Origin: a virus
Taxonomy: Duplodnaviria; Caudoviricetes
DNA length: 61,603 nucleotides
IMG/VR virus record: IMGVR_UViG_3300032322_001005
Location: 1 to 61,603 of that record
Reading direction: 5' to 3' (one strand)
A model generated the notes under the pieces. The model was not told where the DNA came from. It ran no database searches and saw nothing but the letters and a program-made list of their open reading frames with translations. Shown one piece after another: positions 1 to 52,079 of the stretch; positions within the stretch are counted from its first letter, which is position 1, and each line of letters starts with the position of its first letter. A program made the position numbers and the translations under genes.

Positions 1-558
<558 letters not shown>

Positions 559-562
<4 letters not shown>

Positions 563-1335
563 AAGATTCCATGATGTTTGGTGTGGCACTTATCGCAAAC
601 ACAAGTAAGAGACTTCTTTCCTTCTTGTGTATGTTCCAATCCATGGAACTTATAGTTGCTGTGATGAACTCTTAAACTTTCGCTTGAGCTACACATCGCG
701 CACTTATATTCAGCCTTCTTCCTAATTTTGCTGGCAATAATTCTCCAGTAAGGCGTCACTAGAAAATCCTCATAAGGCATTGATTTTATGTGTTCGCTTA
801 TTCTTTCATTGTCTGAATGAAAAATTATTCTATCAAATTCAGAATCAATTTGATGCCATTTAATTCCTTCCTTAAATTTTGCATTCGGCAATAGGTAATT
901 ATTGATTATTATATCTGTATATTTTGTTTTACTTTGATTATTGGTTGCAAAGAACTGCGATCGATCTTCTTCTTTTATTCTTTTTTTGTCATATAACTCT
1001 TTGTCTTTGCATGATTTGCATGTTGATGCCTTCAGCCAGTTATATTTGGCTGTGCCATTTTCTTTTTTCCTAATCTCTTCCATGTGAGATATTAGTTGAG
1101 TTTTTGTTATAGTCCTTTTCTCAATACCTTCACACCTGTCGCAAACAACCTCGCACGTAAACAATGACGGGAGTCCTTTATTTGTTCCAAACAGTTCTCG
1201 TATATCTCTATTTTCTGGAACCTTAATCGCTATGGCCTTTATCGTGTCTTTGTCCAATATTGCTCCATGTATTAGCGGCTTATTTCTCAGGACACGTATG
1301 TATCCCAAGCATTCTTCTATTAAGTTTGAATCCAT
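559..1335 (-). CDS. HNH endonuclease with zinc-binding CxxC motifs
   Basis: C-terminal YEDFLVTPYW...CAMC...VHHSNY...CDKCHTKHH; AT-rich gene. Confidence 0.8.
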
Positions 1336-1348
1336 ATCTGGGTAGGGC

Positions 1349-1488
1349 GATCCCTGCGGTGGCGAACTAAAGCGGCAACTGACGCATGAGAGTGGTGAAA
1401 ACCACAGCAGGGATCATATATGTTGTTTGTTAATTTAGTTTAGTTCCTTTTTCTTACTCGGCTCTCACCCCGAGGCGCGGTTCCCCGC
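1349..1488 (-). ncRNA. C4-antisense-like structured leader (copy 1)
   Basis: Hairpins at 1457-1474 and 1477-1488; long stem 1349-1362/1402-1415; complementary pairs 1387-1392 vs 1462-1467 and 1364-1371 vs 1439-1446. Confidence 0.6.
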
Positions 1489-1496
1489 ACAGGTTC

Positions 1497-1524
1497 AAGG
1501 TAGCACTACTTCATTCCTCGTCAA
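1497..1524 (-). promoter_or_regulatory. sigma70-type promoter TTGACG-16-TACCTT with extended TG
   Basis: Directly upstream of the structured leader. Confidence 0.45.
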
Positions 1525-1765
1525 CTTTATTGTTCAACAATACTCCACGCTGCTCGTGCAGGAGTCCCTGAAGTTCGTTGTTTATCTTTAGCAACTTTGC
1601 GATGTTCTTCTGGAGGCGCAGCACCTCACTACGCTCTACCTCATACATCTCCACGAGGTCGCAGTAATCGCATTGTGCTTTGCCGGGGCGCACGGCTTGT
1701 AGGGGATAGCCGCAGTCGAGACAGGTTCCCGCCTCGCCGTCAAAGATTGTAGGGTTCTCGCTCAT
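1511..1765 (-). CDS. small zinc-finger/coiled-coil protein
   Basis: CLDCG...CDYCD followed by a heptad coiled coil. Confidence 0.6.
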   Translation of the reverse strand: MSENPTIFDGEAGTCLDCGYPLQAVRPGKAQCDYCDLVEMYEVERSEVLRLQKNIAKLLKINNELQGLLHEQRGVLLNNKVDEE

Positions 1766-3211: not shown

Positions 3212-4064
3212 AACCATTCCCCCGTGTCCGGCAGCAGGCGGTGGCGTCCACCTCTGGATCATGCAAGCAGGCTGGCAGTGCAGGCTCCAAGGAATGGATG
3301 CGCAAGAAGCCGTCCGCTACCTCCGAGCAGGCATGACCCGCTATCCGAACCCAAGGAACGAGGTAGAACACGCAGTAGAGAAAATATATGAAACGATTTT
3401 AGAGAATAATGGGCAGTATAATGCACAGTTCAAAGCCCCGAAATGGCCCGAGCAAGACCCTATCCAGATACGGGAGATCGCCGCTAGTAACCTTGGAGCG
3501 GTTGATCTGTGGGAAAGATCACCAATTCGCCTAGGAGATGACCTAGAGGAGCAGGCACAGCGAGTCCTGCCGAGGCTATTCCCGAACAATCCGTGGGTCT
3601 GCGCTGGAGATAAGTGCAAGTTCTTTACCGAGCGATTAGACCAGTTCCTGCAATCGGCTGGAGGGCTGGAACAGATCGTTCCTAGCCCGATGACAGCGAA
3701 GTATGGCAAGACCAAAGACGGCAAGCAAAGCCAGCATACCCTAGACGCTACAGGTGAAAGAAGATTCCTCGTCGTAGAGGGCGACAAGATCGACAAGGAT
3801 ATACAGGCGGCTATACTTCTGAAGCTCGCAGAGAAGATGCCACTAGCTCTGGTGGTAGACTCTGGTGGCAAGTCACTACACGGATGGTTCTATGTAGAGG
3901 GTCAGAATGAAGACAAGGTTCTCTCTTTCTTCCGTAGAGCGTGTGTTCTCGGGGCAGATCGAGGGCTTTGGACGCGCTCCCAGTTCGCTCGGATGCCGGG
4001 GGGCATGAGGTCAAACGGAAATAGGCAGAACATTCTGTATTGGAACCCAGAGGCTATAGCGTGA
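3201..4064 (+). CDS. DNA primase, AEP / RepB'-like
   Basis: FLVVEGD, VVDSGGKSLHGWF and QFARMPG motifs. Confidence 0.7.
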   Translation: MKDRTIPPCPAAGGGVHLWIMQAGWQCRLQGMDAQEAVRYLRAGMTRYPNPRNEVEHAVEKIYETILENNGQYNAQFKAPKWPEQDPIQIREIAASNLGAVDLWERSPIRLGDDLEEQAQRVLPRLFPNNPWVCAGDKCKFFTERLDQFLQSAGGLEQIVPSPMTAKYGKTKDGKQSQHTLDATGERRFLVVEGDKIDKDIQAAILLKLAEKMPLALVVDSGGKSLHGWFYVEGQNEDKVLSFFRRACVLGADRGLWTRSQFARMPGGMRSNGNRQNILYWNPEAIA

Positions 4065-29152: not shown

Positions 29153-32100
29153 TACTTGTAAAGGTTCTGTAATCTCTTCTCTGCCTTCTCGCGTTCTTTG
29201 CCCTGCTCGATCACGTCTTTGTTCATCTGCCTAATCATCCTCGCAACGTCCGTGTCGTTCAAGCGCATTGTGTATAAAAGTTCGCTAACCCCAGCAACGA
29301 ACATTACCCTGCGCTCTTCAGGGGTCAACGTATCGGCAAGCTCTTGGCTGGACAATTCTTTAACCCGATCCGAAAGTTCTGCAAATTGCCCGGGCATGAT
29401 TTCCAGCATACCAAGATTTACTCCCGATCCTTTGCCAGTATAACGATACAAGAAAGCGCGGTCTTTCATGTATTTATCAAACGGCATTACCTCGCCGCTA
29501 TCATCCAGCGCATTTTCGTTTTCGATCTGCGATTCGATGATGTATTGCATGTAGTTGATTGAATCAATCGCTTTGCTTTCAAAAATCTCAGGGAAACCGC
29601 CCAAAACAATATTGGAAAACAATTCTGTCCTGAACTTGCGCCAGATCAAATTTGCTTCTTCTTTCTGCTTTTCTTCGTCGGGTTCGTCCATATCTACTCC
29701 TAGGAGCGCGTAGATAGTAGAAGCACCGAGTCCGTAAACAGCAGGCAGAAGGAATCTGCGAGCTGCATTGAATGTAATCATTCCAGCAATTGTTCCGCTA
29801 AGCCCCTTTGCCGCAGCTTTCCTTTGATCTGAATCGCCAAAGATTGCATCTCGCGCATCCGAAAACATGCGAAGTCTTTCTTGAAGAACGAACGAATAGA
29901 ATGGCATGAAGATCGCTTTGAATAGATTGGCGTATCCATTGTTACCCCTCTGCGATAGTTCTGCCATCCTTGTCGGGTCTGAAGAGCCTTGATACATGTC
30001 GATCATTTGTTCGGCATACATCGCAGCCTCAAGGCGAATCGGGTCGCTTTCAGCATTTAGTCTCGATTCGTTCTCCCATCCAGTAAACTCAACACCTTTG
30101 TCTTGAAGATACTTTCTGTAATAAGAAAGCCATCCAGAGCCAGCCGCCAAGAAGTCAGACTTTTTGAGTGCGTATAACCAAACATTGTTAAGGCGCTCTA
30201 CAGCATCAGATACAACTACCCATCTTCCGTCCTCGACAAATCTTTCAATCTTGCCGTAATTTCCTTCTGTTTGGTTAATCCACTTGGTTCCACCAGCAAT
30301 CTCGCCACGCTCTCCGATGGAGTATTGCCGCAGTAAACTCATGGCACCTTCGCTTGATAAGTCTCTCGTGCTTTCGGCAATCAACGCAGGGTCGCCTACA
30401 TTTGCCAACGTCGTAGCCATTTGCGAAGGATATTGCTTAAAGAATTGTCCGTATCCGCCGAGTGCAAGGCCGATGCCAAACCTGCGCGTAACGTTTGCAA
30501 TCGTGTTGGCAATCGCGCTACCTCCATCTCCGTCGTATGTTCTTGCTAGTGCGTTTGAAAGAACAGCGAGCCGCCTGTTAAGGAAATCAAGGTTCTCTGC
30601 GCCGCCAACAGCCTTCTCTGCATCTGGAGAGTCGAGGAACGCGATAATCTGTTGCCAAGCCGCGTTTGTATTCGCTTTGGAGATTTGATCTGAAAGCGAG
30701 TTGAGAACGTTTTTCGTAAGGTTGTAATCAATTACAGAATCTTTAGGAAGAACTGTAACCTTCTTGCGCTTAATTGAGTTCGCCGCTTGCTTTGGCTTGG
30801 AAACATCTTTTCCTGTTGTAATAACAACCTTGTCTGGTGGTTTTACCTTTGAACCGACCTGCCTATACCGAATTGGCAGGTAGTTCGGATTGTTGTAATT
30901 GTCGGTTTGATTATTAAACAATTCGTCATGTTCCTTTAACATCGGCTTATATTCTGGAAGAACCTGATCTTTTAAGAATATAAGTGCCTCGTAGTTCGCA
31001 ATGTGTGTTCTCTTTAGGTTTTCAAGAATACCCTGCACACTATCGGCATATACCTCATCCAATGCCTTTTTAATAAACGGAACGCTTTCTCTATCAGACC
31101 TTGATGGCGAGCGTTCTTTAACTGCTATATCCTCTTCGATAAGTTTTCTAATTCGCTGAATCCCTTCAGCCTCAGTCTCGTCTGGATCAATCTGAATAAG
31201 ATTTCCAGCTACCCCCATAGAGAACATTCCTTGTTTGTCGGAAATCTTTTGTTTTGTTTCGTCTTCAATCTGTAAATACCTTTCGCGTATACCGTCAGAT
31301 ATTTCGGCGTTGATTTTATTTGCCCTTGCTGTCCCTTTAGAAAGCCTTGCCATTCCCATTTGAACAAGAAGACGCGGCGCTCCATTTTTGCCAGCAATAT
31401 TGCGAAATGTGTCCGCAACAGACTGAACGCTAAGATTCAATGCACGACCAGTTCTTTCTCCAAGGAACGAGTTTAGGAAATTAAACATCGCCTCATTGCG
31501 TTTGATTTGGTTTGGGTCGTTTGCAGCTTCCGCCGCTCCCATTTGCCCCTTGGCTGTCGCTGAAAACTTCTGCGCTCCGAAAAAGTAATTGTTAACAAGA
31601 ATCGAGTTTGCCGCCCGAATAAACTCCTTACGCGCACCTACGTCCAACTGCGACAAATTAAGTCGCTTCATATCGTCAAGTATCTCTGTCGTATCGTCTG
31701 TCGGGTTTGGATTTTTGTAGTTTACCAAAGCGATCTGAGCTTCTTCAGAAATCTTGTTGATCGCAGCTTCAAGTGCCTCTGCTCGCTTTACTCGGCGTTC
31801 ATCACGAGCATCTTGCTTGCGGGCCTCGATCATGCTGGTGAATTCCTCTTCGGACATATCCAGCAAATCAACAGCCTCGTCTTCGGTGATACCTTCTCTT
31901 CCTAGCTCTTGAGACAATGCACGGAGATACAGTTGGCGCTCCGCTTCTTGGCGAGTAGCGTCTATCTCTGTATAAAGATCGTTGAGATAGCTCTGCATTT
32001 CTGCGTCTGGAATAACAACATAATCCTCCGCAGTCACAGGTCCATAGCCCTTCATATACTCGGTTAGAACTGCCGCAAACTCACCGGGGTTGTTTATCTC

Positions 32101-35100
32101 CCTAGGGTTGATTCCAGCGAACTCTTTCAGAACGTCTTTTACTGGTGCTGGGATATCTTTCTGTTTTGCTAGATTCTTTGCAGAGCTAATGGCTTTCTTC
32201 GCATCCGACACGTCCCTGTCGTAATTCGCGTTGTCGATTACCTTGTTCGCGTAGTTCAAGAACGAGAGGATGGACGCGTCGTTGTCGAAACGGACTTGCA
32301 TCGCCTTGTTGACGATAGCGCGAAGCTGCGGGGCTTTTACCCTACCGCGAATTGTTTCCTCGCGGAGTTGGGCTGTCAGGTCTTTTACGAACTCCTTCTG
32401 CTGCGCGGCATCCAGCCTGCGCTTCTTCGCCCCGAGTTTGAGTTGATCCTTCAACGCGGTCTTCTCGTTTATCGTTAACAAGTCACGCTTGCGCTTCACT
32501 CCAGTTGTCGCCTCGATCAATCGCTGGATTGTTGTTGGGCGTGGTTTCTTTTGCGGAGCCTCTGCGGCGGGTTCTACTGTAGGCTCGGCTTCTACTGCCG
32601 CCTCTGGTTCAGCCGCCATCCTAAATATTCCTGCATCCATCTCGCGGATGATTCGCTCTCCGCTCTGGAAGCGTTTAATCGCTGAAGAGAGGACTGCCTG
32701 CGCTCCTCGGTCTGTCAGCCTGAACTTGGTTCCGACCAGCCTGTTCAGCACAGCCTTTACGGCATTTACAAATCGCTCCCACTTCGGGGCGATCCTATTC
32801 TCTGCGATCAGCGTCCCGAATGCGCGGACTTGGTTCTCCTCCATCTGCACGGACTGAGACTCTTCCGAGTAGTGGCGGCGAATAATATCGTCTGCCTGCG
32901 CCTGTTGCTCTGGTGACAACGCGTTCCAAAACTCTTTAAACGCAGCCTGCACTTCAGGATCGCCGTAGACGAAGTGACCGAGTTCGTGCGCGATATTGTC
33001 TGCGATGTTGTCTTCTTTGGAGAGATACGCTTGGTTGAGGATAATCTGACCAGTCTCTAGGTTGTATCCCGCCTTGAAGCGATAGTCTGGGTCTGTGCTA
33101 TCGTTAACAATTGTGAGGTTCGCCGGGGCTTTTCCGCCGAAGAACTTCTTCGCCGCTACCAAGATTTGCTCGTATGTGTAGCGATTGCTTTCTTGAACTG
33201 GGCTTGGCTCAACCGCCATGTATCTTTGGTCTGGCCCGATTATTCCAGTTGGGCGGGCTTCCGTTTTGGGATTCTTAACAAATACGCGAGAGCCAACCAT
33301 TATTGCCTCATCGCCACCGACAACCGTCCTCTTACTTCTTACATCAATAAATTGGCTTGATCGTATCGGATTATAGCCAACCTCCGTCCACACATTCGGA
33401 TCGTTAATGTCGGCAGGGAGTTCAGCGATTGGCTCGTAGTTGCCCTTGACTGTAGCTAGTCGGAACTTGCCAGCACCCATTGCAATGGTTAGCGCCCCGC
33501 CTTCTCGCATGTTGCGAGTCATAAATCTTGGATTTGTAACTTTAGCTATGCCAGTAAATGCAACAACGTCTCCAATTTTTTTAGAATCATCGGCAACTGG
33601 AAGATGTGCCGTAATTGCATATACCGTGTCGCCTGCCTCTGTTGATTTGTTATAAGTTGGAATGTCTATTCTAAATTCATACTCGGAACCTTCTTGGAGG
33701 CGAGAATTCCCATTTTTGTCAAGCAATCCAACCTGATCAATTTTATTGCTCTGAATGTATTGTTTTATTTTTGCATCTGTCGGAATTGGGTCTGGCCCTT
33801 TGGCAACGAATGGGTCAAGCGCGCCTACCAAATTAGCATACTCATCAACAGTAATCTCCTTGTTCTTCATCCTTACCGCAGCGACAGCTAGTTGCGGGTT
33901 CCTAGCCATAACCCTGTTTGAAGATGCTTTATCAAATGCCGCCTGCTCTTCTTGGGTTCGCGGTTTTATCGCTTGCGGCTGAATCGCCATTCTCCGCACT
34001 CCTTTCGCCTTTACGGGCTTTACGTCGTTCTTCTCTACGACCTGCACCTCTCCGGTTCGCTCGTTCTTTACGGAGTAATACTGCTCTCCTAGATCGCGCT
34101 CTGTTGCTGTCTGCGGGATGACTTTTTCTACTACGTAGGTCTGCGGGCTTTTGCCGAGCTTGATGCGGTTGCCTACTGCGATTCCCTCTGGTGCTGCTTC
34201 TGGTGCGGGTGGAGTTGTTACAGCGGGGGCGACGGGTGCGGGTGCTGGCGCAGGGGCCGCTTGTATCTCCGCGACTCGCTCTGCTGGGGTGAGGCGAGGA
34301 AGAGGAGCTTGCGCTCTAGATAAAATAGCCTCTCCGTCTTGATTTATGACGGGCTGGCCTTTGATAATATCGACAAGCCCCGCTGCGGATAGCGCGGAAA
34401 TCTGTTCGCGTTTTGCCGTGTTTTCCGCTACAGAGCGCAAATTGTTTATTACTTGTGCATCGGCAGAAGTTATTGGTTCTGCTGCTACTGGCTGCGGGGC
34501 GGCTGCGGCTGGCTGGGCTGCTCGTTCTCTGCGCTCAAGCTCTTGGACGCCGGACTCAACTTCGCTAATAGTTTCTGGGAATGCGACAGCTTCGCCAGAA
34601 GGGCGAACCTCCCTGCGTAGCGAGGACTTGTATTGTTGGTATTTGGGGTTGCTTTCATAATTTGTGATGTCTTGGTCAATTAGCAGATATGGTTCAGCTA
34701 ATGCTTGTTTTTGCTCTTCGGATATCGGAAGTCTGTCAATAACTCGCAGTGCTGTATCAATCTGTCGATTTGCCACCTCGATCTGCTCTGGGCTGATCTG
34801 CGTGTAAAACTCTGGTGTGCTTGAGATTTTGACAGACCTCTTTCCCTCTTTAACCAATTTAGATTCGCCAACGTCAAATATGTCGGCAATCGCGTTAAGT
34901 GTTGGAGAGTTTTCAATTTCAATTAACGCCTGCGGAATTTCAAAATCGTCCTCTGTTGCGGCGATTTCTTCTTCTGTTACCTGAGGCTTGGATTCGATAA
35001 CCGACGCAACCTGTGGCAACGCAGGCTCGGCAGGAGCCTGTCTAGTCTGCCCTTTGCGAACCCACTCAACCCCTTCGATCTCGCTGATAGGTTGGTTGGG

Positions 35101-36768
35101 ATTTACTGGAACTTCATACTTTTCAGCGGTGGCGAACGGCCTGAATACCGTCACCCCATCTTCAACAGATATTGCTCCGCGCATTCCGTTGAATACGAAT
35201 GTGTCTTTGTCTCTGATTGATTCGGCTATGGTTCTTTGCGGAGCGGCAAGCTCTTCTGGAGCGGCAGGCGTAATGGGTGCGGCAGGTGCTGCTGGCTGCG
35301 TAACAGCCGCAACTGCGGGAGCTGCCTCTTCTACGGGTGGGACTGTAATCGGCGTGGGTGCTACCCCTGCACGGAACTCGGCAAGTGCGTCCAGCCCAGC
35401 TTGAGCGAATGCACGGGTATCCGCGTCTTCGCTTTCGAGTTCTTCGCGGAAGCCCCGCTCGGTCTGGGCGATAGACTCCGGCGACATTTTGGCGAAGGTT
35501 GTTTTGAACTCTTCTTTGGCGGGAACCTCGTATACCGTGGGCTTGGGTGCAAACTTCTCGCGCTCTTGCGCAAGTTCGGTTTCTGTCTGTTCGTTGGTCT
35601 GTTTCTCTTGCTGCAACGCATCCTTTGCTGAAGTAACCGTAACTGCCTGTGCAGTAAGGGGAGCGTTATTGTTTTCCAAGTTTGACGCAACCTTCGCGGC
35701 CTCTTGAAGTTGACGTTGTTTTCTACGCTCGGCAAATCCTTGTTGCACTTTACCGATTGCGATTTCCGCAGCACCCGGCCCGACCTCGCCAACGATTTCA
35801 GCAAACACATCCTTTGGTCTAATTTCTTCGCCAGCAGCAAGCGATCCAGCAACTTCACCACCGCCACCCAGAGCGGCTTGAATCGCTGTTTCTGCGGCGA
35901 CTTCACGCACTGGCGTCTTAAACGCAGCCTTGGTGATTTTAGCCACCTTACCGCCGATACCAGCGGATAGTGCATCAAACGCAGCGACAGGAACGCCTCG
36001 CTTGAGTGCTTTGTCTTTTGCCTCGTCAACCAGCTTTTGGTTGGAAAAGAATTCGGTGATGCTGTCTGGATTGTTTATGTCCATTCCTGCATTCTGTAGT
36101 TCCTCAAGCATCTTGCCGCCGTATTCGGTAGCCAGCGAACCAGCAAATGTTCCTGCAATCTGACCACCCAAGAATCCAGCGGGTGCCCCAATTACTGTAG
36201 GTGCGCCAATAGCAGCGCCAACCGTTCCAGCGGCAAGACCAGTGCCCAATGCTGGAAGATTTCCAGAAAGACCCTCTGCGACGATATTTGTCGTAACCTC
36301 AAACGGATTGGTGACAAACGCCTTTACCGCATCCATTCCTTCGGCATCCTGATACGCCTTGTAGTCGGGCGATACCTCTCGTGCCTTTTTTTCAAATTCC
36401 AACTTAGAGATTTCTTTTGCTTCCTCTGGAGTTACGCCTCCGACTGTTTTGATCGCTTGTTGGGATGAGGCAAAAGCGTTCTGTGCCGCGTTGGCGATTC
36501 CTTCAAATACACCAACCTCTGGCTTTAGCTTCCTTTTGGAAAGTTGACCAAAATCAGCAAACTCTTCCTCGTCGCCATACTCTTTGGCTTTCTGATTATA
36601 CCATCCTGTAAACCCAGAAGCGAACTCCTCGTCACGATACAGTCCTTGCTGCATGGCGCGGTCAACCGCAGTCCTGCTCCACTTGCCAAAGTAATCTTTC
36701 TTCTTTGCCGTGTCTAAAGACTGAAATTCAGGATCGGATTCTACTTCTTTCCAAGTCGGAAACCTCAT
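29152..36768 (-). CDS. giant internal virion/DNA-ejection protein (polyvalent type) with a zincin HExxH domain
   Basis: About 2540 aa; Gly/Ala-rich hydrophobic N-terminal segment; AHELGH at 32974-32988; helical C-terminus; likely start MRFPTW at 36768. Confidence 0.75.
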   Translation of the reverse strand: MRFPTWKEVESDPEFQSLDTAKKKDYFGKWSRTAVDRAMQQGLYRDEEFASGFTGWYNQKAKEYGDEEEFADFGQLSKRKLKPEVGVFEGIANAAQNAFASSQQAIKTVGGVTPEEAKEISKLEFEKKAREVSPDYKAYQDAEGMDAVKAFVTNPFEVTTNIVAEGLSGNLPALGTGLAAGTVGAAIGAPTVIGAPAGFLGGQIAGTFAGSLATEYGGKMLEELQNAGMDINNPDSITEFFSNQKLVDEAKDKALKRGVPVAAFDALSAGIGGKVAKITKAAFKTPVREVAAETAIQAALGGGGEVAGSLAAGEEIRPKDVFAEIVGEVGPGAAEIAIGKVQQGFAERRKQRQLQEAAKVASNLENNNAPLTAQAVTVTSAKDALQQEKQTNEQTETELAQEREKFAPKPTVYEVPAKEEFKTTFAKMSPESIAQTERGFREELESEDADTRAFAQAGLDALAEFRAGVAPTPITVPPVEEAAPAVAAVTQPAAPAAPITPAAPEELAAPQRTIAESIRDKDTFVFNGMRGAISVEDGVTVFRPFATAEKYEVPVNPNQPISEIEGVEWVRKGQTRQAPAEPALPQVASVIESKPQVTEEEIAATEDDFEIPQALIEIENSPTLNAIADIFDVGESKLVKEGKRSVKISSTPEFYTQISPEQIEVANRQIDTALRVIDRLPISEEQKQALAEPYLLIDQDITNYESNPKYQQYKSSLRREVRPSGEAVAFPETISEVESGVQELERRERAAQPAAAAPQPVAAEPITSADAQVINNLRSVAENTAKREQISALSAAGLVDIIKGQPVINQDGEAILSRAQAPLPRLTPAERVAEIQAAPAPAPAPVAPAVTTPPAPEAAPEGIAVGNRIKLGKSPQTYVVEKVIPQTATERDLGEQYYSVKNERTGEVQVVEKNDVKPVKAKGVRRMAIQPQAIKPRTQEEQAAFDKASSNRVMARNPQLAVAAVRMKNKEITVDEYANLVGALDPFVAKGPDPIPTDAKIKQYIQSNKIDQVGLLDKNGNSRLQEGSEYEFRIDIPTYNKSTEAGDTVYAITAHLPVADDSKKIGDVVAFTGIAKVTNPRFMTRNMREGGALTIAMGAGKFRLATVKGNYEPIAELPADINDPNVWTEVGYNPIRSSQFIDVRSKRTVVGGDEAIMVGSRVFVKNPKTEARPTGIIGPDQRYMAVEPSPVQESNRYTYEQILVAAKKFFGGKAPANLTIVNDSTDPDYRFKAGYNLETGQIILNQAYLSKEDNIADNIAHELGHFVYGDPEVQAAFKEFWNALSPEQQAQADDIIRRHYSEESQSVQMEENQVRAFGTLIAENRIAPKWERFVNAVKAVLNRLVGTKFRLTDRGAQAVLSSAIKRFQSGERIIREMDAGIFRMAAEPEAAVEAEPTVEPAAEAPQKKPRPTTIQRLIEATTGVKRKRDLLTINEKTALKDQLKLGAKKRRLDAAQQKEFVKDLTAQLREETIRGRVKAPQLRAIVNKAMQVRFDNDASILSFLNYANKVIDNANYDRDVSDAKKAISSAKNLAKQKDIPAPVKDVLKEFAGINPREINNPGEFAAVLTEYMKGYGPVTAEDYVVIPDAEMQSYLNDLYTEIDATRQEAERQLYLRALSQELGREGITEDEAVDLLDMSEEEFTSMIEARKQDARDERRVKRAEALEAAINKISEEAQIALVNYKNPNPTDDTTEILDDMKRLNLSQLDVGARKEFIRAANSILVNNYFFGAQKFSATAKGQMGAAEAANDPNQIKRNEAMFNFLNSFLGERTGRALNLSVQSVADTFRNIAGKNGAPRLLVQMGMARLSKGTARANKINAEISDGIRERYLQIEDETKQKISDKQGMFSMGVAGNLIQIDPDETEAEGIQRIRKLIEEDIAVKERSPSRSDRESVPFIKKALDEVYADSVQGILENLKRTHIANYEALIFLKDQVLPEYKPMLKEHDELFNNQTDNYNNPNYLPIRYRQVGSKVKPPDKVVITTGKDVSKPKQAANSIKRKKVTVLPKDSVIDYNLTKNVLNSLSDQISKANTNAAWQQIIAFLDSPDAEKAVGGAENLDFLNRRLAVLSNALARTYDGDGGSAIANTIANVTRRFGIGLALGGYGQFFKQYPSQMATTLANVGDPALIAESTRDLSSEGAMSLLRQYSIGERGEIAGGTKWINQTEGNYGKIERFVEDGRWVVVSDAVERLNNVWLYALKKSDFLAAGSGWLSYYRKYLQDKGVEFTGWENESRLNAESDPIRLEAAMYAEQMIDMYQGSSDPTRMAELSQRGNNGYANLFKAIFMPFYSFVLQERLRMFSDARDAIFGDSDQRKAAAKGLSGTIAGMITFNAARRFLLPAVYGLGASTIYALLGVDMDEPDEEKQKEEANLIWRKFRTELFSNIVLGGFPEIFESKAIDSINYMQYIIESQIENENALDDSGEVMPFDKYMKDRAFLYRYTGKGSGVNLGMLEIMPGQFAELSDRVKELSSQELADTLTPEERRVMFVAGVSELLYTMRLNDTDVARMIRQMNKDVIEQGKEREKAEKRLQNLYK

Positions 36769-36812
36769 AGCGGTCAACTATACAGCAATGGTTATTGTTT
36801 CCAAGAACTTTA

Positions 36813-48158: not shown

Positions 48159-48170
48159 AATTTATTGTGT

Positions 48171-48617
48171 ATGAGTGTAAAAGTTCTGTCGGAGGTATTC
48201 GACAAAAGCCTTACGAGCGGCAATGCGAGGCTTGTGCTTCTCGCGTTGGCTGACTGTGCAAGCGAAGATGGGGCATGCTGGCCTTCGCTGCGGAAACTGA
48301 AAAAGAAATCAGGCGTATCTGAAGAAACAGTTCGCAAGTATCTCCACGCTTTTGAGGCAATCGGGCTTATCTCTTCTGAAGAGCGATATGATGTTGGAGG
48401 AAGGCGAACATCCAACGTCTATACAATCAACCTCGAAATGCTCGGAAGGGATTCGCCGGAGCATAAAACCTTGTATTCTGTCATACCGAAAAGCAAAAGG
48501 CGGGGGAGGGGTAGGTATGAACCAGTTCAGAGGGGGGTAGGTATGAACATGTTCATAGGGGGTAGGTATGAACCAGTTCATAGGGTCTATAATGAACCGT
48601 CTATAGAACCGTTATAA
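48171..48617 (+). CDS. HTH (HTH_36-like) replication-initiator-like protein, short
   Basis: MSVKV...ARLVLLALAD.A...G.CWPS...SGVSE.TV...GLI...SNVY. Confidence 0.8.
   Translation: MSVKVLSEVFDKSLTSGNARLVLLALADCASEDGACWPSLRKLKKKSGVSEETVRKYLHAFEAIGLISSEERYDVGGRRTSNVYTINLEMLGRDSPEHKTLYSVIPKSKRRGRGRYEPVQRGVGMNMFIGGRYEPVHRVYNEPSIEPL
48508..48580. repeat. iterons (3 x GGGGTAGGTATGAACnnGTTCA)
   Basis: Period 25-26 bp; each copy has a TGAAC-nn-GTTCA palindrome. Confidence 0.8.
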
Positions 48618-48659
48618 AGAACCGTCATGTTGCTTTTGTTGTTTTGAAAGGATAATCGC

Positions 48660-49358
48660 ATGGGATACACAAATAAGATCGGCAGGAGAGATCGCCGAAA
48701 GATAAAAAAGATCGGCAAATTCAAGATGACTCGCTGGGAGTATCGCAATGAGTATCTGAAGTCGCCGGAGTGGCAGGCACTACGCGAATCGTTTTTGAGG
48801 TCGCATAGCGGACTTTGCGAACGATGCGGAAAGCCCGGCTGCGATGTTCACCACACAGCATACAAGTTCAAAGAAACCGAGTGGGAACAGAAACAGCGAT
48901 TGATGCTTCTTTGCAGAAGCTGTCACAACACGGTTCACAAAGCGATAAACTGCAAACTCCTTTGGTTTCCGCACCACAAAGAGGATGTTATTGCGCTGAC
49001 AGATGATGCTCTAAAGAGGCGATTGAGTAGATCGAAAAAGAAAGAACTTGTTCCAATGATGCTGATTAGCAACATCGTTAAGAACGGAACTTCGCATGGT
49101 ATCTGCTTGGCGTGTGCCAAGCTAAAGATAACACAAAGCACGTTTTGCTCGATTCCAGCAAACCTAAAGGCGACTCAAGCACAGATTGATTACTTGCGAT
49201 GGGTGGAAAAGACAAGGCCGACCAAAGACGGCTGGAAATACAAGAACAACAAAAAACAAACCAAGAAGAGTGCGAAAGAAAAAGAAAAGCTACGCAAACT
49301 AAAGATAAGCCTCGGATTACGAAGTGCTAATGTTCAAGAAGACCTTTGCCCGTTTTGA
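48660..49358 (+). CDS. HNH endonuclease
   Basis: EYLKSPEW...CERC...DVHH..Y...LCRSCH. Confidence 0.8.
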   Translation: MGYTNKIGRRDRRKIKKIGKFKMTRWEYRNEYLKSPEWQALRESFLRSHSGLCERCGKPGCDVHHTAYKFKETEWEQKQRLMLLCRSCHNTVHKAINCKLLWFPHHKEDVIALTDDALKRRLSRSKKKELVPMMLISNIVKNGTSHGICLACAKLKITQSTFCSIPANLKATQAQIDYLRWVEKTRPTKDGWKYKNNKKQTKKSAKEKEKLRKLKISLGLRSANVQEDLCPF

Positions 49359-49417
49359 TGCAAAGCGTATGACGTTTGACAAAAATGTATACACTTTGGA
49401 AAATCTATTAACAAAAC

Positions 49418-49819
49418 ATGCGATACGAAGAATACGCTTTAAGCATTGCCGAGACGGTAGCGCAGAAGAGCAAAGACCCTTGGAGGAAGGTGGGTGCCTG
49501 TATCCTGCGGCACGACAACTCGATTGCTTCTGTAGGGTATAACGGGTTTCCGGCAGGTATGACTGAGGATTGGTCAGACCGCGAGGAAAGGAGGCTGTTC
49601 GTCGTGCATGCCGAGCAGAATGCTCTGCGATATATCAGACCTGAAGAGTGCGGGCTAATCGCCGTTACGACGCTACCCTGCAATGATTGCCTGAAAGCGA
49701 TTGCCTCCTACGGCATCAAGCGAATCGTTTACCGCGATTGTTACGAACGAGATTCTTCCAGCGAGCGGATTGCCGAGAAGTTCGGCATCGAACTAATCCA
49801 ACTTCCTACTGCGAGTTGA
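49418..49819 (+). CDS. dCMP deaminase
   Basis: SKDP..KVGA, GYNG, HAEQNA, PCNDC. Confidence 0.9.
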   Translation: MRYEEYALSIAETVAQKSKDPWRKVGACILRHDNSIASVGYNGFPAGMTEDWSDREERRLFVVHAEQNALRYIRPEECGLIAVTTLPCNDCLKAIASYGIKRIVYRDCYERDSSSERIAEKFGIELIQLPTAS

Positions 49820-49954
49820 GAGACTGAAACGTTTTGTTCTTCAGCTTCTTTTTAGCGAGACGCTTGTCGTAGATGCTGCGATAATTATCCGTATATTTCG
49901 GGATATCCTTTTTAGGCGGATAGTTCTCGTAGTCTGATTTGGAAGATTTCTTTT

Positions 49955-50269
49955 TCATGCCAGCGATCCCATCTGAGTTCCGTAAGGCGATGACAAAATA
50001 CGCGGGTCTTTTGCAAGTGCTTTTTTCTTTTCCCTGTCTGCGAGCATTTTCTTATACTCGTCCAAACGAGATGTCTTGGCGGTTCCAAGCCTTCTTTCTC
50101 CGTCCTTATCTACAACCTGCGCTTCATCGTCTTCTTCTTCGATGCCCCTGCGGCGACGCTTAGAGTATTGGCCCGAATATTCTCCCCCTTGCGACAAGGG
50201 TTTCTGCCCCCGAGACATTCTGCGCTCGTTAACTCGGGCAAGTTGCCCTTCTGTCCAACCGTATGCCAT
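49955..50269 (-). CDS. hypothetical charged protein
   Basis: ORF coupled to 50269..50481. Confidence 0.55.
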   Translation of the reverse strand: MAYGWTEGQLARVNERRMSRGQKPLSQGGEYSGQYSKRRRRGIEEEDDEAQVVDKDGERRLGTAKTSRLDEYKKMLADREKKKALAKDPRILSSPYGTQMGSLA

Positions 50270-50481
50270 TAGCGATCAAATCCTGTTCCTTGCGATCCCA
50301 TTTTGAATCCACGAGCGCGTTCTGCGGCTTCGCGCTGATCAGCGGTAGCCCTTTCTCCTTGAATTCGCCCCTGCATAAATGGATCGCTCATTGCTTTTTT
50401 GCGTTCTTCTTCAGTCATCCTATCCCATCTGTTCCCATACATTCTGCGATAAGCCTGACCGATGTAACTGTTTTCCATCAT
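50269..50481 (-). CDS. hypothetical protein
   Basis: ORF divergent from 50528. Confidence 0.5.
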   Translation of the reverse strand: MMENSYIGQAYRRMYGNRWDRMTEEERKKAMSDPFMQGRIQGERATADQREAAERARGFKMGSQGTGFDR

Positions 50482-50527
50482 AATTTTAACTTTCTATTGT
50501 TTGCCGATAAACTATACTACCTCCGGT

Positions 50528-50773
50528 ATGAGTAAAGAAAAACTTTTCGCGCTATATCTTGCGAAGAATCCCGGCTTCGACAGCGAGACGATTACGTTCA
50601 CGCAAGAAGGTCTGAAGAAGTTCTTCAACACAACCTACGACGCGGCCTACAAGCAAGGGTTCAATCAACAGCCCGACACCGACGAATACGAGGAAGAAGA
50701 TTTTTCGCCTGCGTATTCGGCTAATACAGCGAGCGTTGACGAGCTTCTCGGAATGTTCGGTATGCGGAGATAG
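50528..50773 (+). CDS. hypothetical protein
   Basis: MSKEKLF...VDELLGMFGM. Confidence 0.6.
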   Translation: MSKEKLFALYLAKNPGFDSETITFTQEGLKKFFNTTYDAAYKQGFNQQPDTDEYEEEDFSPAYSANTASVDELLGMFGMRR

Positions 50774-50802
50774 TTGACGAGGTGCCCAGCATTTCGTATG
50801 CT
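50774..50802 (+). promoter_or_regulatory. sigma70 promoter TTGACG-17-TATGCT (leaderless dnaB)
   Basis: 8 nt upstream of ATG 50811. Confidence 0.65.
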
Positions 50803-50810
50803 CTTCTTCG

Positions 50811-52079
50811 ATGAACACCAACCTACCCGCCGATCTGGCGTCGGAGCAGGGATTCCTATGCTCCGTCATTACAAACCCGAAGATAATCGACAAGTCCGTT
50901 GACCGCGTAACCGAAGAGCATTTCACTTCCTTCGGCAACCGCGAAATCTGGAAGGCTACGTTAGCCCTGTGGCAAGAAAGGCGGGCCGTAGACCCGATTA
51001 CTGTAGCAGGAAGTCTTGAGAAGGCTGGCGTATTTGAAGAAGCTGGGGGGAAAGAGTATTTAACCCAAACCGTAGAGTATTGCCTTACGCCTTCGCATTG
51101 GAAAGAATACCTGCAAAATATCCACGAGTGCTTTGTTCGTAGAAAGATACACGCCGCAGCACAGAAGATGATCGAAGGTGCGCTCGACAAAGGAAAGAAG
51201 ATCGAAGAACTGCAAGAGAATGCGAGTAAGGATATTGTCTCGCTAAGTGCGACAAATGCCGAGAACCGTCACATATCGGCGGTTCTGAGCAATTGTATTA
51301 CGAGGTGGGAGGAGGCAGCAAACTCTGGAGGTGCGGTTAATCGCGGGCACGAGTCTGGGATCAGCAGGTGGGATCACGCGACCAGAGGATTCAGACCAAG
51401 AACCCTGCACGTTATTGCGGGTGCGGCTAAAGCAGGCAAGACTACTTCTGCCTTGCAGATGGTAACGAATCCAGCTTTCGAGAAAAACGTTCCTATTGCC
51501 TTGATCTCGATGGAGATGGGCGCGGAAGAACTGCTCGACAAGTATATCGCGCAGAAAGCCAAGGTGAATATCTCCGATCTACTGGACGGAAGGCTGGATC
51601 ATGGAGCGCACGAGAGGATGTCACAAGTTATCGCTAAATCTTCCAAACTACCAATTTACATCGCAGACGAGGCGTGTATGACAGTGACGCAATTCAAGGC
51701 GAGATGCAGGAGGCTCGTGTCCGAGAACAAGGTAGAGATCATCATGGTCGACTACGCCCAGTTGATGGAGGCATCCGGCGATCCCAAGAATAGAGAGCGC
51801 GAGGTGGCAGAGGTAAGCAGAACGGCGAAGATTCTCGCCAAAGAACTGAATGTCTGTATTGTCCTTCTGGCCCAGCTAAACGACAACGGAGCCGTCCGCG
51901 AGTCGAGGACATTCTACATGGACTGCGACTCTTTTACAAAAGTCCACAAAGACGAGGAGAATACAGACCCGTATGCTTATTGTCTAACAATAACCCACAA
52001 CCGACACGGAGCTACAACAATGGTTCCCGTCAGGTTCGTGAAGTCCCAAGCCAGATTTGAGGAGGCCAGTTATGAATAG
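50811..52079 (+). CDS. dnaB: DnaB-like replicative helicase
   Basis: N-terminal EQGFL domain; AGAAKAGKTT; ISMEM; VDYAQLM; LAQLN; NRHG. Confidence 0.9.
   Translation: MNTNLPADLASEQGFLCSVITNPKIIDKSVDRVTEEHFTSFGNREIWKATLALWQERRAVDPITVAGSLEKAGVFEEAGGKEYLTQTVEYCLTPSHWKEYLQNIHECFVRRKIHAAAQKMIEGALDKGKKIEELQENASKDIVSLSATNAENRHISAVLSNCITRWEEAANSGGAVNRGHESGISRWDHATRGFRPRTLHVIAGAAKAGKTTSALQMVTNPAFEKNVPIALISMEMGAEELLDKYIAQKAKVNISDLLDGRLDHGAHERMSQVIAKSSKLPIYIADEACMTVTQFKARCRRLVSENKVEIIMVDYAQLMEASGDPKNREREVAEVSRTAKILAKELNVCIVLLAQLNDNGAVRESRTFYMDCDSFTKVHKDEENTDPYAYCLTITHNRHGATTMVPVRFVKSQARFEEASYE

Follow-up and report, generated by a model that had tools for sequence, protein, structure and literature searches.

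The replication-initiator operon of a phage is preceded by a 5' leader that has its own promoter, starts at a hairpin (H1) and covers positions 1490-1349 on the minus strand of the window, the whole stretch of 61,603 bases that was analysed. The leader holds a self-contained two-site RNA lock, in which two short segments close to its 5' end, a1 and b1, pair with a' and b' in the open interior of a stem-loop (SL) further downstream. Both long-range pairings are real and covary among homologous leaders. These leaders form a new RNA family, absent from Rfam 15, and a literature search found no description of it.

Genomic context of the leader

The window comes from an IMG/VR virus record with a completeness estimate of 90%. 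On the minus strand, an ORF of 84 aa (1765-1511) is followed by a gap of 175 nt, the gene of a 258-aa protein with an HNH motif (1335-559) and the replication-initiator gene (589-2), see Table 1. The HNH protein matches HNH endonucleases of PHROG only weakly (E = 2.4e-4 at best) and nothing in Pfam. At the contig end, 71 consecutive C (1-71), probably an assembly or sequencing artefact, cut the initiator gene; a full-length copy of the initiator is found in contig L001 at 439-1419.

A second replication module, on the plus strand at 48165-52076, comprises an O-like initiator N-terminal domain of 150 aa, a further HNH protein, a dCMP deaminase and a DnaB-like helicase. This makes two initiator-like genes in the phage, and the leader is present only at the one at 2-589. 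Elsewhere, an ORF of 2541 aa (29155-36777, minus strand) has no match in PHROG or Pfam, and the same is true for most structural genes of this phage.

Table 1. Coordinates of the leader elements and neighbouring features in the window.
Feature	Position	Strand	Description
-35 hexamer	1519..1524	-	TTGACG, within the last codons of the 84-aa ORF; based on conservation
-10 hexamer	1497..1502	-	TACCTT, weak TAnnnT-type match; 16-nt spacer in the window
H1	1475..1490	-	hairpin, 6 bp and GGAA (GNRA) tetraloop; predicted transcript 5' end
H2	1457..1474	-	hairpin CUCGG-GGUGAGAG-CCGAG, 5 bp and 8-nt loop, abuts H1
a1	1462..1468	-	GUGAGAG, H2 loop positions 2-8; partner a'
b1	1439..1446	-	single-stranded 8-mer GAACUAAA in the A-rich linker; partner b'
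Conserved linker	1416..1438	-	CUAAAU..UAACAAAC..AUAUAU, unpaired, 23 nt; last base is the U at -1 of SL
uORF	1367..1417	-	16 codons, MIPAVVFTTLMRQLPL; no Shine-Dalgarno sequence
SL	1349..1415	-	67-nt stem-loop closed by GAUCCCUGC..GCAGGGAUC; outer stem 9+4 bp, open interior, one central hairpin; candidate excised RNA
a'	1386..1392	-	CUCUCAU, 5' strand of the SL interior; complementary to a1, one G.U in the window
Central hairpin of SL	1372..1385	-	GCG-UCAGUUGC-CGC
b'	1364..1371	-	UUUAGUUC, 3' strand of the SL interior; complementary to b1
RCC tail	1346..1348	-	GCC just past the outer stem; GCC in 43/45 leaders
First gene	559..1335	-	258-aa protein, C-terminal HNH motif; ATG without Shine-Dalgarno sequence
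Replication-initiator gene	2..589	-	truncated by contig end; PHROG replication initiation protein, E = 2.1e-18

Architecture of the leader

The first-pass annotation had proposed a C4/a1b1-like leader with two hairpins, a linker 8-mer and a long stem whose loop holds complements to the upstream elements. All of these elements are found on the minus strand between 1490 and 1349, as listed in Table 1. Most agree with the earlier description, including the second hairpin, the 8-mer, the long stem and both loop complements. The first hairpin had been given as GCGG-GGAA-CCGC, which is present but makes up only the inner 4 bp of H1; the full stem has 6 bp (GUGCGG-GGAA-CCGCGC).

The same architecture is seen in the 45 distinct leaders described below. 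The H1 loop is GAAA in 30 of them, GGAA in 5 and GAGA in 5. TTAAAT stands directly 3' of b1 in most leaders, and the linker ends in ...AT immediately 5' of the SL stem in 43/45, so that the U at -1 of SL is kept in the same number. Folded alone, all 45 SLs, which range from 59 to 67 nt, form an outer stem of 13-16 bp and a central hairpin with an open interior between them. In these isolated folds the mean unpaired probability of a' is 0.91 over the 45 SLs (0.76 in the window), and that of b' is 0.87 over the 45.

Past the GCC that follows the stem, at least 5 T within 6 nt are found in 28 of the 45 leaders. This T-run is absent in the window, and where it exists the GCC separates it from the stem. 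A generic promoter/terminator scan reports no terminator-like site at the SL or within the leader, and no terminator was found between b1 and the SL.

Promoter, upstream region and upstream open reading frame

A TTGnnn hexamer, a spacer of 16-18 nt and a TAnnnT hexamer, ending 7-10 nt before H1, are present in 45/45 leaders, with TTGACA as the -35 hexamer in 28. The leader promoter goes unflagged in the generic promoter scan, and its -10 hexamers are weak; the case for it therefore rests on conservation. In the distant relative L005, a gene of 182 aa (3270-3818) is located between the 84-aa ORF and the leader, and the promoter is still present there. This shows that the leader is linked to the Rep gene rather than to the upstream ORF.

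Just upstream of the promoter, palindromes are seen in many leaders: TATTGTTGAACAATA in the window at 1528-1542 (minus strand), TTGTT-N-AACAA in 7/45 and TTATCG-N4-CGATAA in 30/45. These are possible operators for a phage regulator.

The 16-codon uORF that the first-pass annotation had placed at the stem base exists in the window, but it is not a conserved part of the leader. An ATG at this place is present in 33 of the 45 leaders and absent in 11, two different reading frames are used for the peptide, and the position of the stop varies, lying inside the SL in the window. Six leaders have the uORF in the frame of the first gene. In 24 of those that have the ATG, it ends 10-77 nt after the SL, often as UAAAAUG beside the gene start, and in this part of the group translational coupling to the first gene is possible.

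Homologous leaders

With the 84-aa ORF as query, two close relatives (L003 and L004) and one distant relative (L005) were found in IMG/VR, together with two metagenome contigs (L016 and L017). Their leaders share a common 5' part and then diverge. A covariance model was built from the window and L016 using only the nested helices, with the a and b helices left out, and it recovered 6/6 of the initial leaders. A scan of IMG/VR for two strings of the central hairpin gave 70 new loci, of which 52 have a full-length leader at E <= 5.4e-4. Added to the first five sources, these give 57 contig matches, a sample skewed by the search route to two subfamilies, and 45 distinct leader sequences with about 24 different a/b combinations. 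The near-invariance of the central hairpin among the homologues is an artefact, since its strings were the search query.

Other routes to homologues gave little. Searched by DNA similarity, the 3-kb region had no match in phage or plasmid collections and the leader of L052 had none in the phage collection. The HNH protein as query found one contig, which is cut within the gene, while two Rep alignment queries returned the same six contigs, four of which end before the leader; a protein search of genome contigs found nothing. The pattern ATGATCCC..GGGRTCGCCCT was also tried on viral contigs and set aside, as the 11 stretches found besides the one in the contig of L004 (12 in all) resemble chance matches in coding DNA. 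A 20-mer searched against genome contigs gave 3 stretches, none with a full-length match to the model, and neither a prophage copy nor a host was found.

Two long-range pairings

Within the window alone, the pairings are only weakly significant. When the SL interior was shuffled 5000 times, a co-linear pair of complements of equal length arose in 86 cases. For the 175-nt intergenic RNA the folding z-score is -1.48, with folds as good or better in 16 of 200 shuffles; the plus strand of the same region gives z = 0.06.

The evidence comes from the family. Conservation and covariation in homologous leaders, on which the first-pass annotation had made its proposal depend, are both present, and both pairings are kept across the 45 distinct sequences. 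When the register is left free, a has 7 bp in 41 leaders, and of the other four three have 8 bp and one has 6 bp; b forms at least 8 bp in 44/45, with a single loss in L048. The result is similar in a fixed register, with a1 defined as the final 7 nt in the loop of H2 and a' as the 7 nt that immediately precede the central hairpin: 7/7 positions pair in 41/45 leaders, and the other four are displaced by one base. For b, the 8 nt 3' of the central hairpin against the linker are fully Watson-Crick paired (8/8) in 37 leaders, 7/8 in 7 and 4/8 in 1.

As the a and b helices are not part of the covariance model, this pairing is a test independent of the model. With the two added as pseudoknot helices on alignment A7, 96.6% of cells are paired, compared to 81.2% in shuffles, and 0/500 shuffles reach the observed value. 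Sliding the partners by 1-3 columns leaves 36-52% paired. Taken separately, helix a pairs in 95.1% of cells and helix b in 84.4%, the value for b being reduced by register slips in the linker; both sides have changed in 5/7 pairs of a and 4/8 pairs of b. The nested helices were fitted to the model, so their values are biased towards it: H1 is paired in 100% of cells with 6/6 pairs changed on both sides, H2 in 98.7% with 5/5, and the outer stem of SL in 99.7% with 11/13. All helices vary, not a and b alone, and this variation consequently does not show a and b to be hypervariable keys.

At one position of a, G.U is the commonest pair (30 G.U vs 9 G-C), and the same holds at one position of the outer stem. 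This shows that the structure belongs to the RNA of the sense strand and not to DNA or to the opposite strand. Examples of the keys are given in Table 2; among the non-cognate ordered combinations, only 12/552 match fully at both sites.

Table 2. Matched a and b keys in the window and in four homologous leaders.
Leader	a1	a'	b1	b'
Window	GUGAGAG	CUCUCAU	GAACUAAA	UUUAGUUC
L004	GUGAGAG	CUCUCAC	GAAGCAAA	UUUGCUUC
L003	GUGAAGC	GCUUCAC	CCAAAAGA	UCUUUUGG
L017	CUAGGAA	UUCCUAG	AAGAAAAG	CUUUUCUU
L005	AUGGAAA	UUUCCAU	ACAGAAGA	UCUUCUGU

The leader of L048 (8269-8415, minus strand) has kept a1/a' and b' and has lost b1 (4/8 pairs), which its close relative L042 retains. This single natural variant without b1 may represent an escape from repression.

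Downstream genes and mosaicism

The first start codon lies 11-19 nt past the SL, with a Shine-Dalgarno sequence in 0/45 leaders. The first genes encode 21 distinct products, of which 14 match replication-initiator or DnaD-like families, one is of the HNH type and six have no match (five of 85-95 aa and one of 378 aa). An HNH gene follows only 3/45 leaders; at the other loci the leader adjoins the Rep gene or a short ORF, and in the relative L064 an initiator of the window type comes directly after it. The HNH gene is thus a local insert outside the device. As to the operon named in the earlier description, the element is a promoter-proximal leader of the replication-initiator operon.

The region is mosaic. 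The initiators of close relatives share identical C-terminal 170 aa and have different N-terminal domains, and the a/b cassettes differ between close relatives whose flanks are identical. Conversely, one a/b type precedes at least five different first genes. No second a/b target was found elsewhere in the window, and in the four complete genomes tested a composite a..b target was found in the own leader only. It follows that the leader is a portable unit that targets only itself.

Five complete carrier genomes (52.7-54.9 kb) contain one leader each. Neither in these five genomes nor among the ORFs of the window was a tyrosine integrase or a resolvase-type recombinase found, which argues against lysogenic immunity of the P1/P4 kind. 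Five assemblies break in or beside the leader/Rep cassette (the contig ends of L001, L011, L012 and L015, and positions 1-589 of the window), a pattern that fits co-existing cassette variants in the samples.

A proposed mechanism and its alternatives

We suggest, by analogy with C4 and CI, that the SL may be excised, bind a1 and b1 of other leader transcripts and lower the expression of the initiator; to us the chances for and against this are evenly balanced. The SL would be cut out of the leader, and its U at -1, G-C first pair and RCC tail are features that mark RNase P substrates, C4 among them. Once excised, the RNA would accumulate and bind a1/b1 of new leaders, both those of its own genome and those of co-infecting phages of the same type. 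Such binding would lower the expression of the replication operon, with termination at the SL, RNA decay or a block of translation as possible routes, and the outcome would be a copy-number-dependent, type-specific shut-off of the initiator.

This C4-like reading is favoured by the P1-like layout, the RNase P-type marks, the precedent of P4 CI, the matched keys in some 24 classes and a promoter in 45/45 leaders. The points against it are that Rfam gives no match, that the SL has one inner hairpin, that the order of a' and b' differs, and that there is neither an a2/b2 site nor a terminator before the SL. The T-run is also patchy, the carriers are without integrase and the -10 hexamers are weak.

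Pairing within one molecule would account for the covariation of a and b just as well. In a purely cis-acting folded leader, which we consider rather unlikely, a1/a' and b1/b' would be intramolecular tertiary or pseudoknot contacts and there would be no RNA acting in trans; a compact shape of ~150 nt would set the translation of the first gene, read-through or RNA stability, or serve as a docking site for a protein or ligand. This would agree with both partners always being in the same transcript, with the lack of any other target in the window and the four complete genomes, and with the covariation of all helices beyond a and b. A GNRA tetraloop, as in H1, and conserved unpaired bases, as in the linker, are typical of folded RNAs, the 23 nt of the linker appear from the lengths long enough for both helices to form in cis, and the base of the SL is close (11-19 nt) to a start codon that has no Shine-Dalgarno sequence in any leader. 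However, the pairings touch neither the arms of the outer stem nor the start region, so that no cis switch is evident. A cis-acting leader would also give the RCC tail and the U at -1 no role, and its layout would copy the a1/b1 region of P1, the partner of which is a trans-acting RNA. Finally, near-identical phages have different and yet always matched keys, and few non-cognate combinations fit.

The T-run in 28/45 leaders, the A-rich linker with the U-rich end, the strongly conserved -35 hexamer and the single copy per complete genome would also suit a separate small RNA gene, in which transcription mostly stops at the SL and T-run to give a structured RNA of ~150 nt, the replication genes being reached by read-through. 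The job of this RNA would be elsewhere, for example binding of a host protein (Hfq) or self-cleavage. We find this improbable: the T-run is missing in the window and 17/45 leaders, stands 3 nt off the stem and is not flagged by the terminator scan, no known ribozyme or sRNA family in Rfam matches, and the 11-19 nt between the SL and the first gene hold no separate promoter. Control by a leader peptide in the style of IncI-alpha/IncB, where ribosomes on the uORF would melt the SL and restart at the first gene, with a1/a' helping or hindering, seems to us about as improbable. It would account for the ATG that 33/45 leaders have 2 nt ahead of the stem, for the 24 uORFs that end 10-77 nt after the SL, for the 6 in frame with the first gene, and for a first gene without a Shine-Dalgarno sequence; but the 11/45 leaders that lack the ATG retain all RNA features, the peptide has two frames and a variable stop (within the SL in the window), and the uORF itself has no Shine-Dalgarno sequence. 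The position beside a replication-initiator gene could, in principle, also point to signals in the DNA, either inverted repeats to which the initiator or some other protein binds, or a hairpin in single-stranded DNA at an origin. We have rejected this reading, the least probable of all and very nearly negligible, because of the G.U pattern: at some positions the commonest pair is one that DNA, or the opposite strand, would have as a mismatch. A composite inverted repeat would also have another order than a1, b1, a', b', and the plus strand shows no excess of folding.

Returning to the excised SL, a broader statement can be put forward tentatively, as possible and no better than that: the portable two-site lock may divide apparently virulent, uncultured phages into at least 20 replication-control groups that are mutually orthogonal, in which an SL released by RNase P would shut off the initiator operon of all genomes in the cell that have the same a/b type.

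Implications

If the proposal is true, the SL would be a sensor of copy number in lytic growth and, between co-infecting relatives, a weapon or exclusion device. The principle of C4 and CI would then be an ancient and widespread device for replication control that goes beyond lysogenic immunity. The roughly 24 natural and nearly all perfectly matched key combinations make up a ready set of compensatory mutants, useful for studying two-site RNA recognition and possible incompatibility or exclusion groups among phages. The keys of the leaders could also supply orthogonal RNA regulators for engineering.

Comparison with known systems

Sense RNAs that are derived from leaders and act as antisense regulators are known from a few temperate elements, among them P1/P7, P4 and their relatives. 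The present family has the same logic and module sizes as C4/CI in a different fold, and it is located before replication initiators on at least 57 phage contigs.

The likeness to C4 and c4-a1b1 claimed in the first-pass annotation finds no support in Rfam. At gathering scores, C4 (RF01695), c4-a1b1 (RF03163) and isrK (RF01394) have no match in the window, and they have none in 1200-1650 even at E up to 10, where a single chance match to an IRES was obtained (E = 8.6). None of the 4227 Rfam models matches the leader in the window or at 18 other member loci; 13 of these gave a tRNA only, and the other 5, searched at E up to 10, three irrelevant weak matches. The same models work well on the controls, with 74.9 bits for C4 and 60.8 bits for isrK in P4, and 68.8 bits for C4 and 51 bits for c4-a1b1 in P1, where isrK is below threshold.

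The 5' half, on the other hand, has the layout of P1. From the annotated record and the sequence, P1 has a promoter, two abutting hairpins, the second with an 8-nt loop whose positions 2-8 are the 7-nt a1, an 8-nt b1 4 nt later, then the 77-nt C4 RNA (with U at -1 and an ACC overhang) and finally a2/b2 before icd. The promoter-proximal abutting hairpins, the position of a1 in the loop and the single-stranded 8-nt b1 are the same in the leader family, and in both cases a1/b1 are complementary to a stem-closed RNA downstream in the same transcript. C4 has the U at -1 and ACC after the stem; SL has the U at -1 and GCC, and its stem is closed by the ends of the RNA. These are the parts of the C4/a1b1 likeness that stand: the layout of a1 and b1, the U at -1 and the RCC tail. 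The Rfam match, the two inner hairpins, the order of a' and b', the a2/b2 site and the terminator do not.

The differences lie in the RNA and in what it could act on. C4 has 77 nt and two inner hairpins, whereas SL has 59-67 nt and one inner hairpin in all 45 leaders. C4 carries b' in its second hairpin loop and a' in the 3' junction, while in all 45 SLs a' is in the 5' and b' in the 3' junction strand; as a' is 5' of b', the two helices cross, unlike in C4. Between b1 and the RNA there are 66 nt with an isrK-like part in P1, compared to 23 nt without a hairpin in the window. P1 C4 represses through a2/b2 over the ribosome-binding site, but a composite site of this type (at most 1 mismatch per half, within 400 nt downstream) was found in only 2/45 leaders, compared to 44/45 for the control with the own leader. 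P1 controls icd and ant, while the leader family precedes replication initiators, and P1/P7 have a system of lysogenic immunity, while in the carrier phages of the leader family no integrase was found. According to a passage in a review, the keys of the related phages P1 and P7 differ in sequence, as do those of the leader family, and the C4 precursor is cited in the literature as a substrate of RNase P.

P4 CI is described in the literature as a leader-derived sense RNA that controls the replication genes of P4 through a complementary upstream site in the same leader. The leader family shares with CI/seqA this position in the leader of the phage's own replication genes. In P4, however, there is one pairing of ~8 nt, between the CI loop and single-stranded seqA, with a second target downstream, while the leader family has two pairings. 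An intrinsic terminator follows right after seqA (isrK-type part) in P4; none was found in the leader family, which has no isrK match.

Rep control in IncI-alpha/IncB plasmids involves a leader peptide, an activating pseudoknot and an antisense RNA. Here too, a hairpin loop before the initiator gene pairs at long range, as in the leader family. The pairing partner is near the initiator gene in IncI-alpha/IncB but is not at the gene start site in the leader family, where a short ORF runs through the structure in only part of the members. The IncI-alpha/IncB leader peptide is conserved and coupled to rep, in contrast to a uORF that is missing in 11/45 leaders and variable in frame and stop. As for an antisense RNA, the G.U pattern of the leader family fits the sense strand only, with no sign of a transcript from the opposite strand. 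By the membership tests, the leader family is outside C4, c4-a1b1 and isrK of Rfam, yet in its design it is C4/CI-like.
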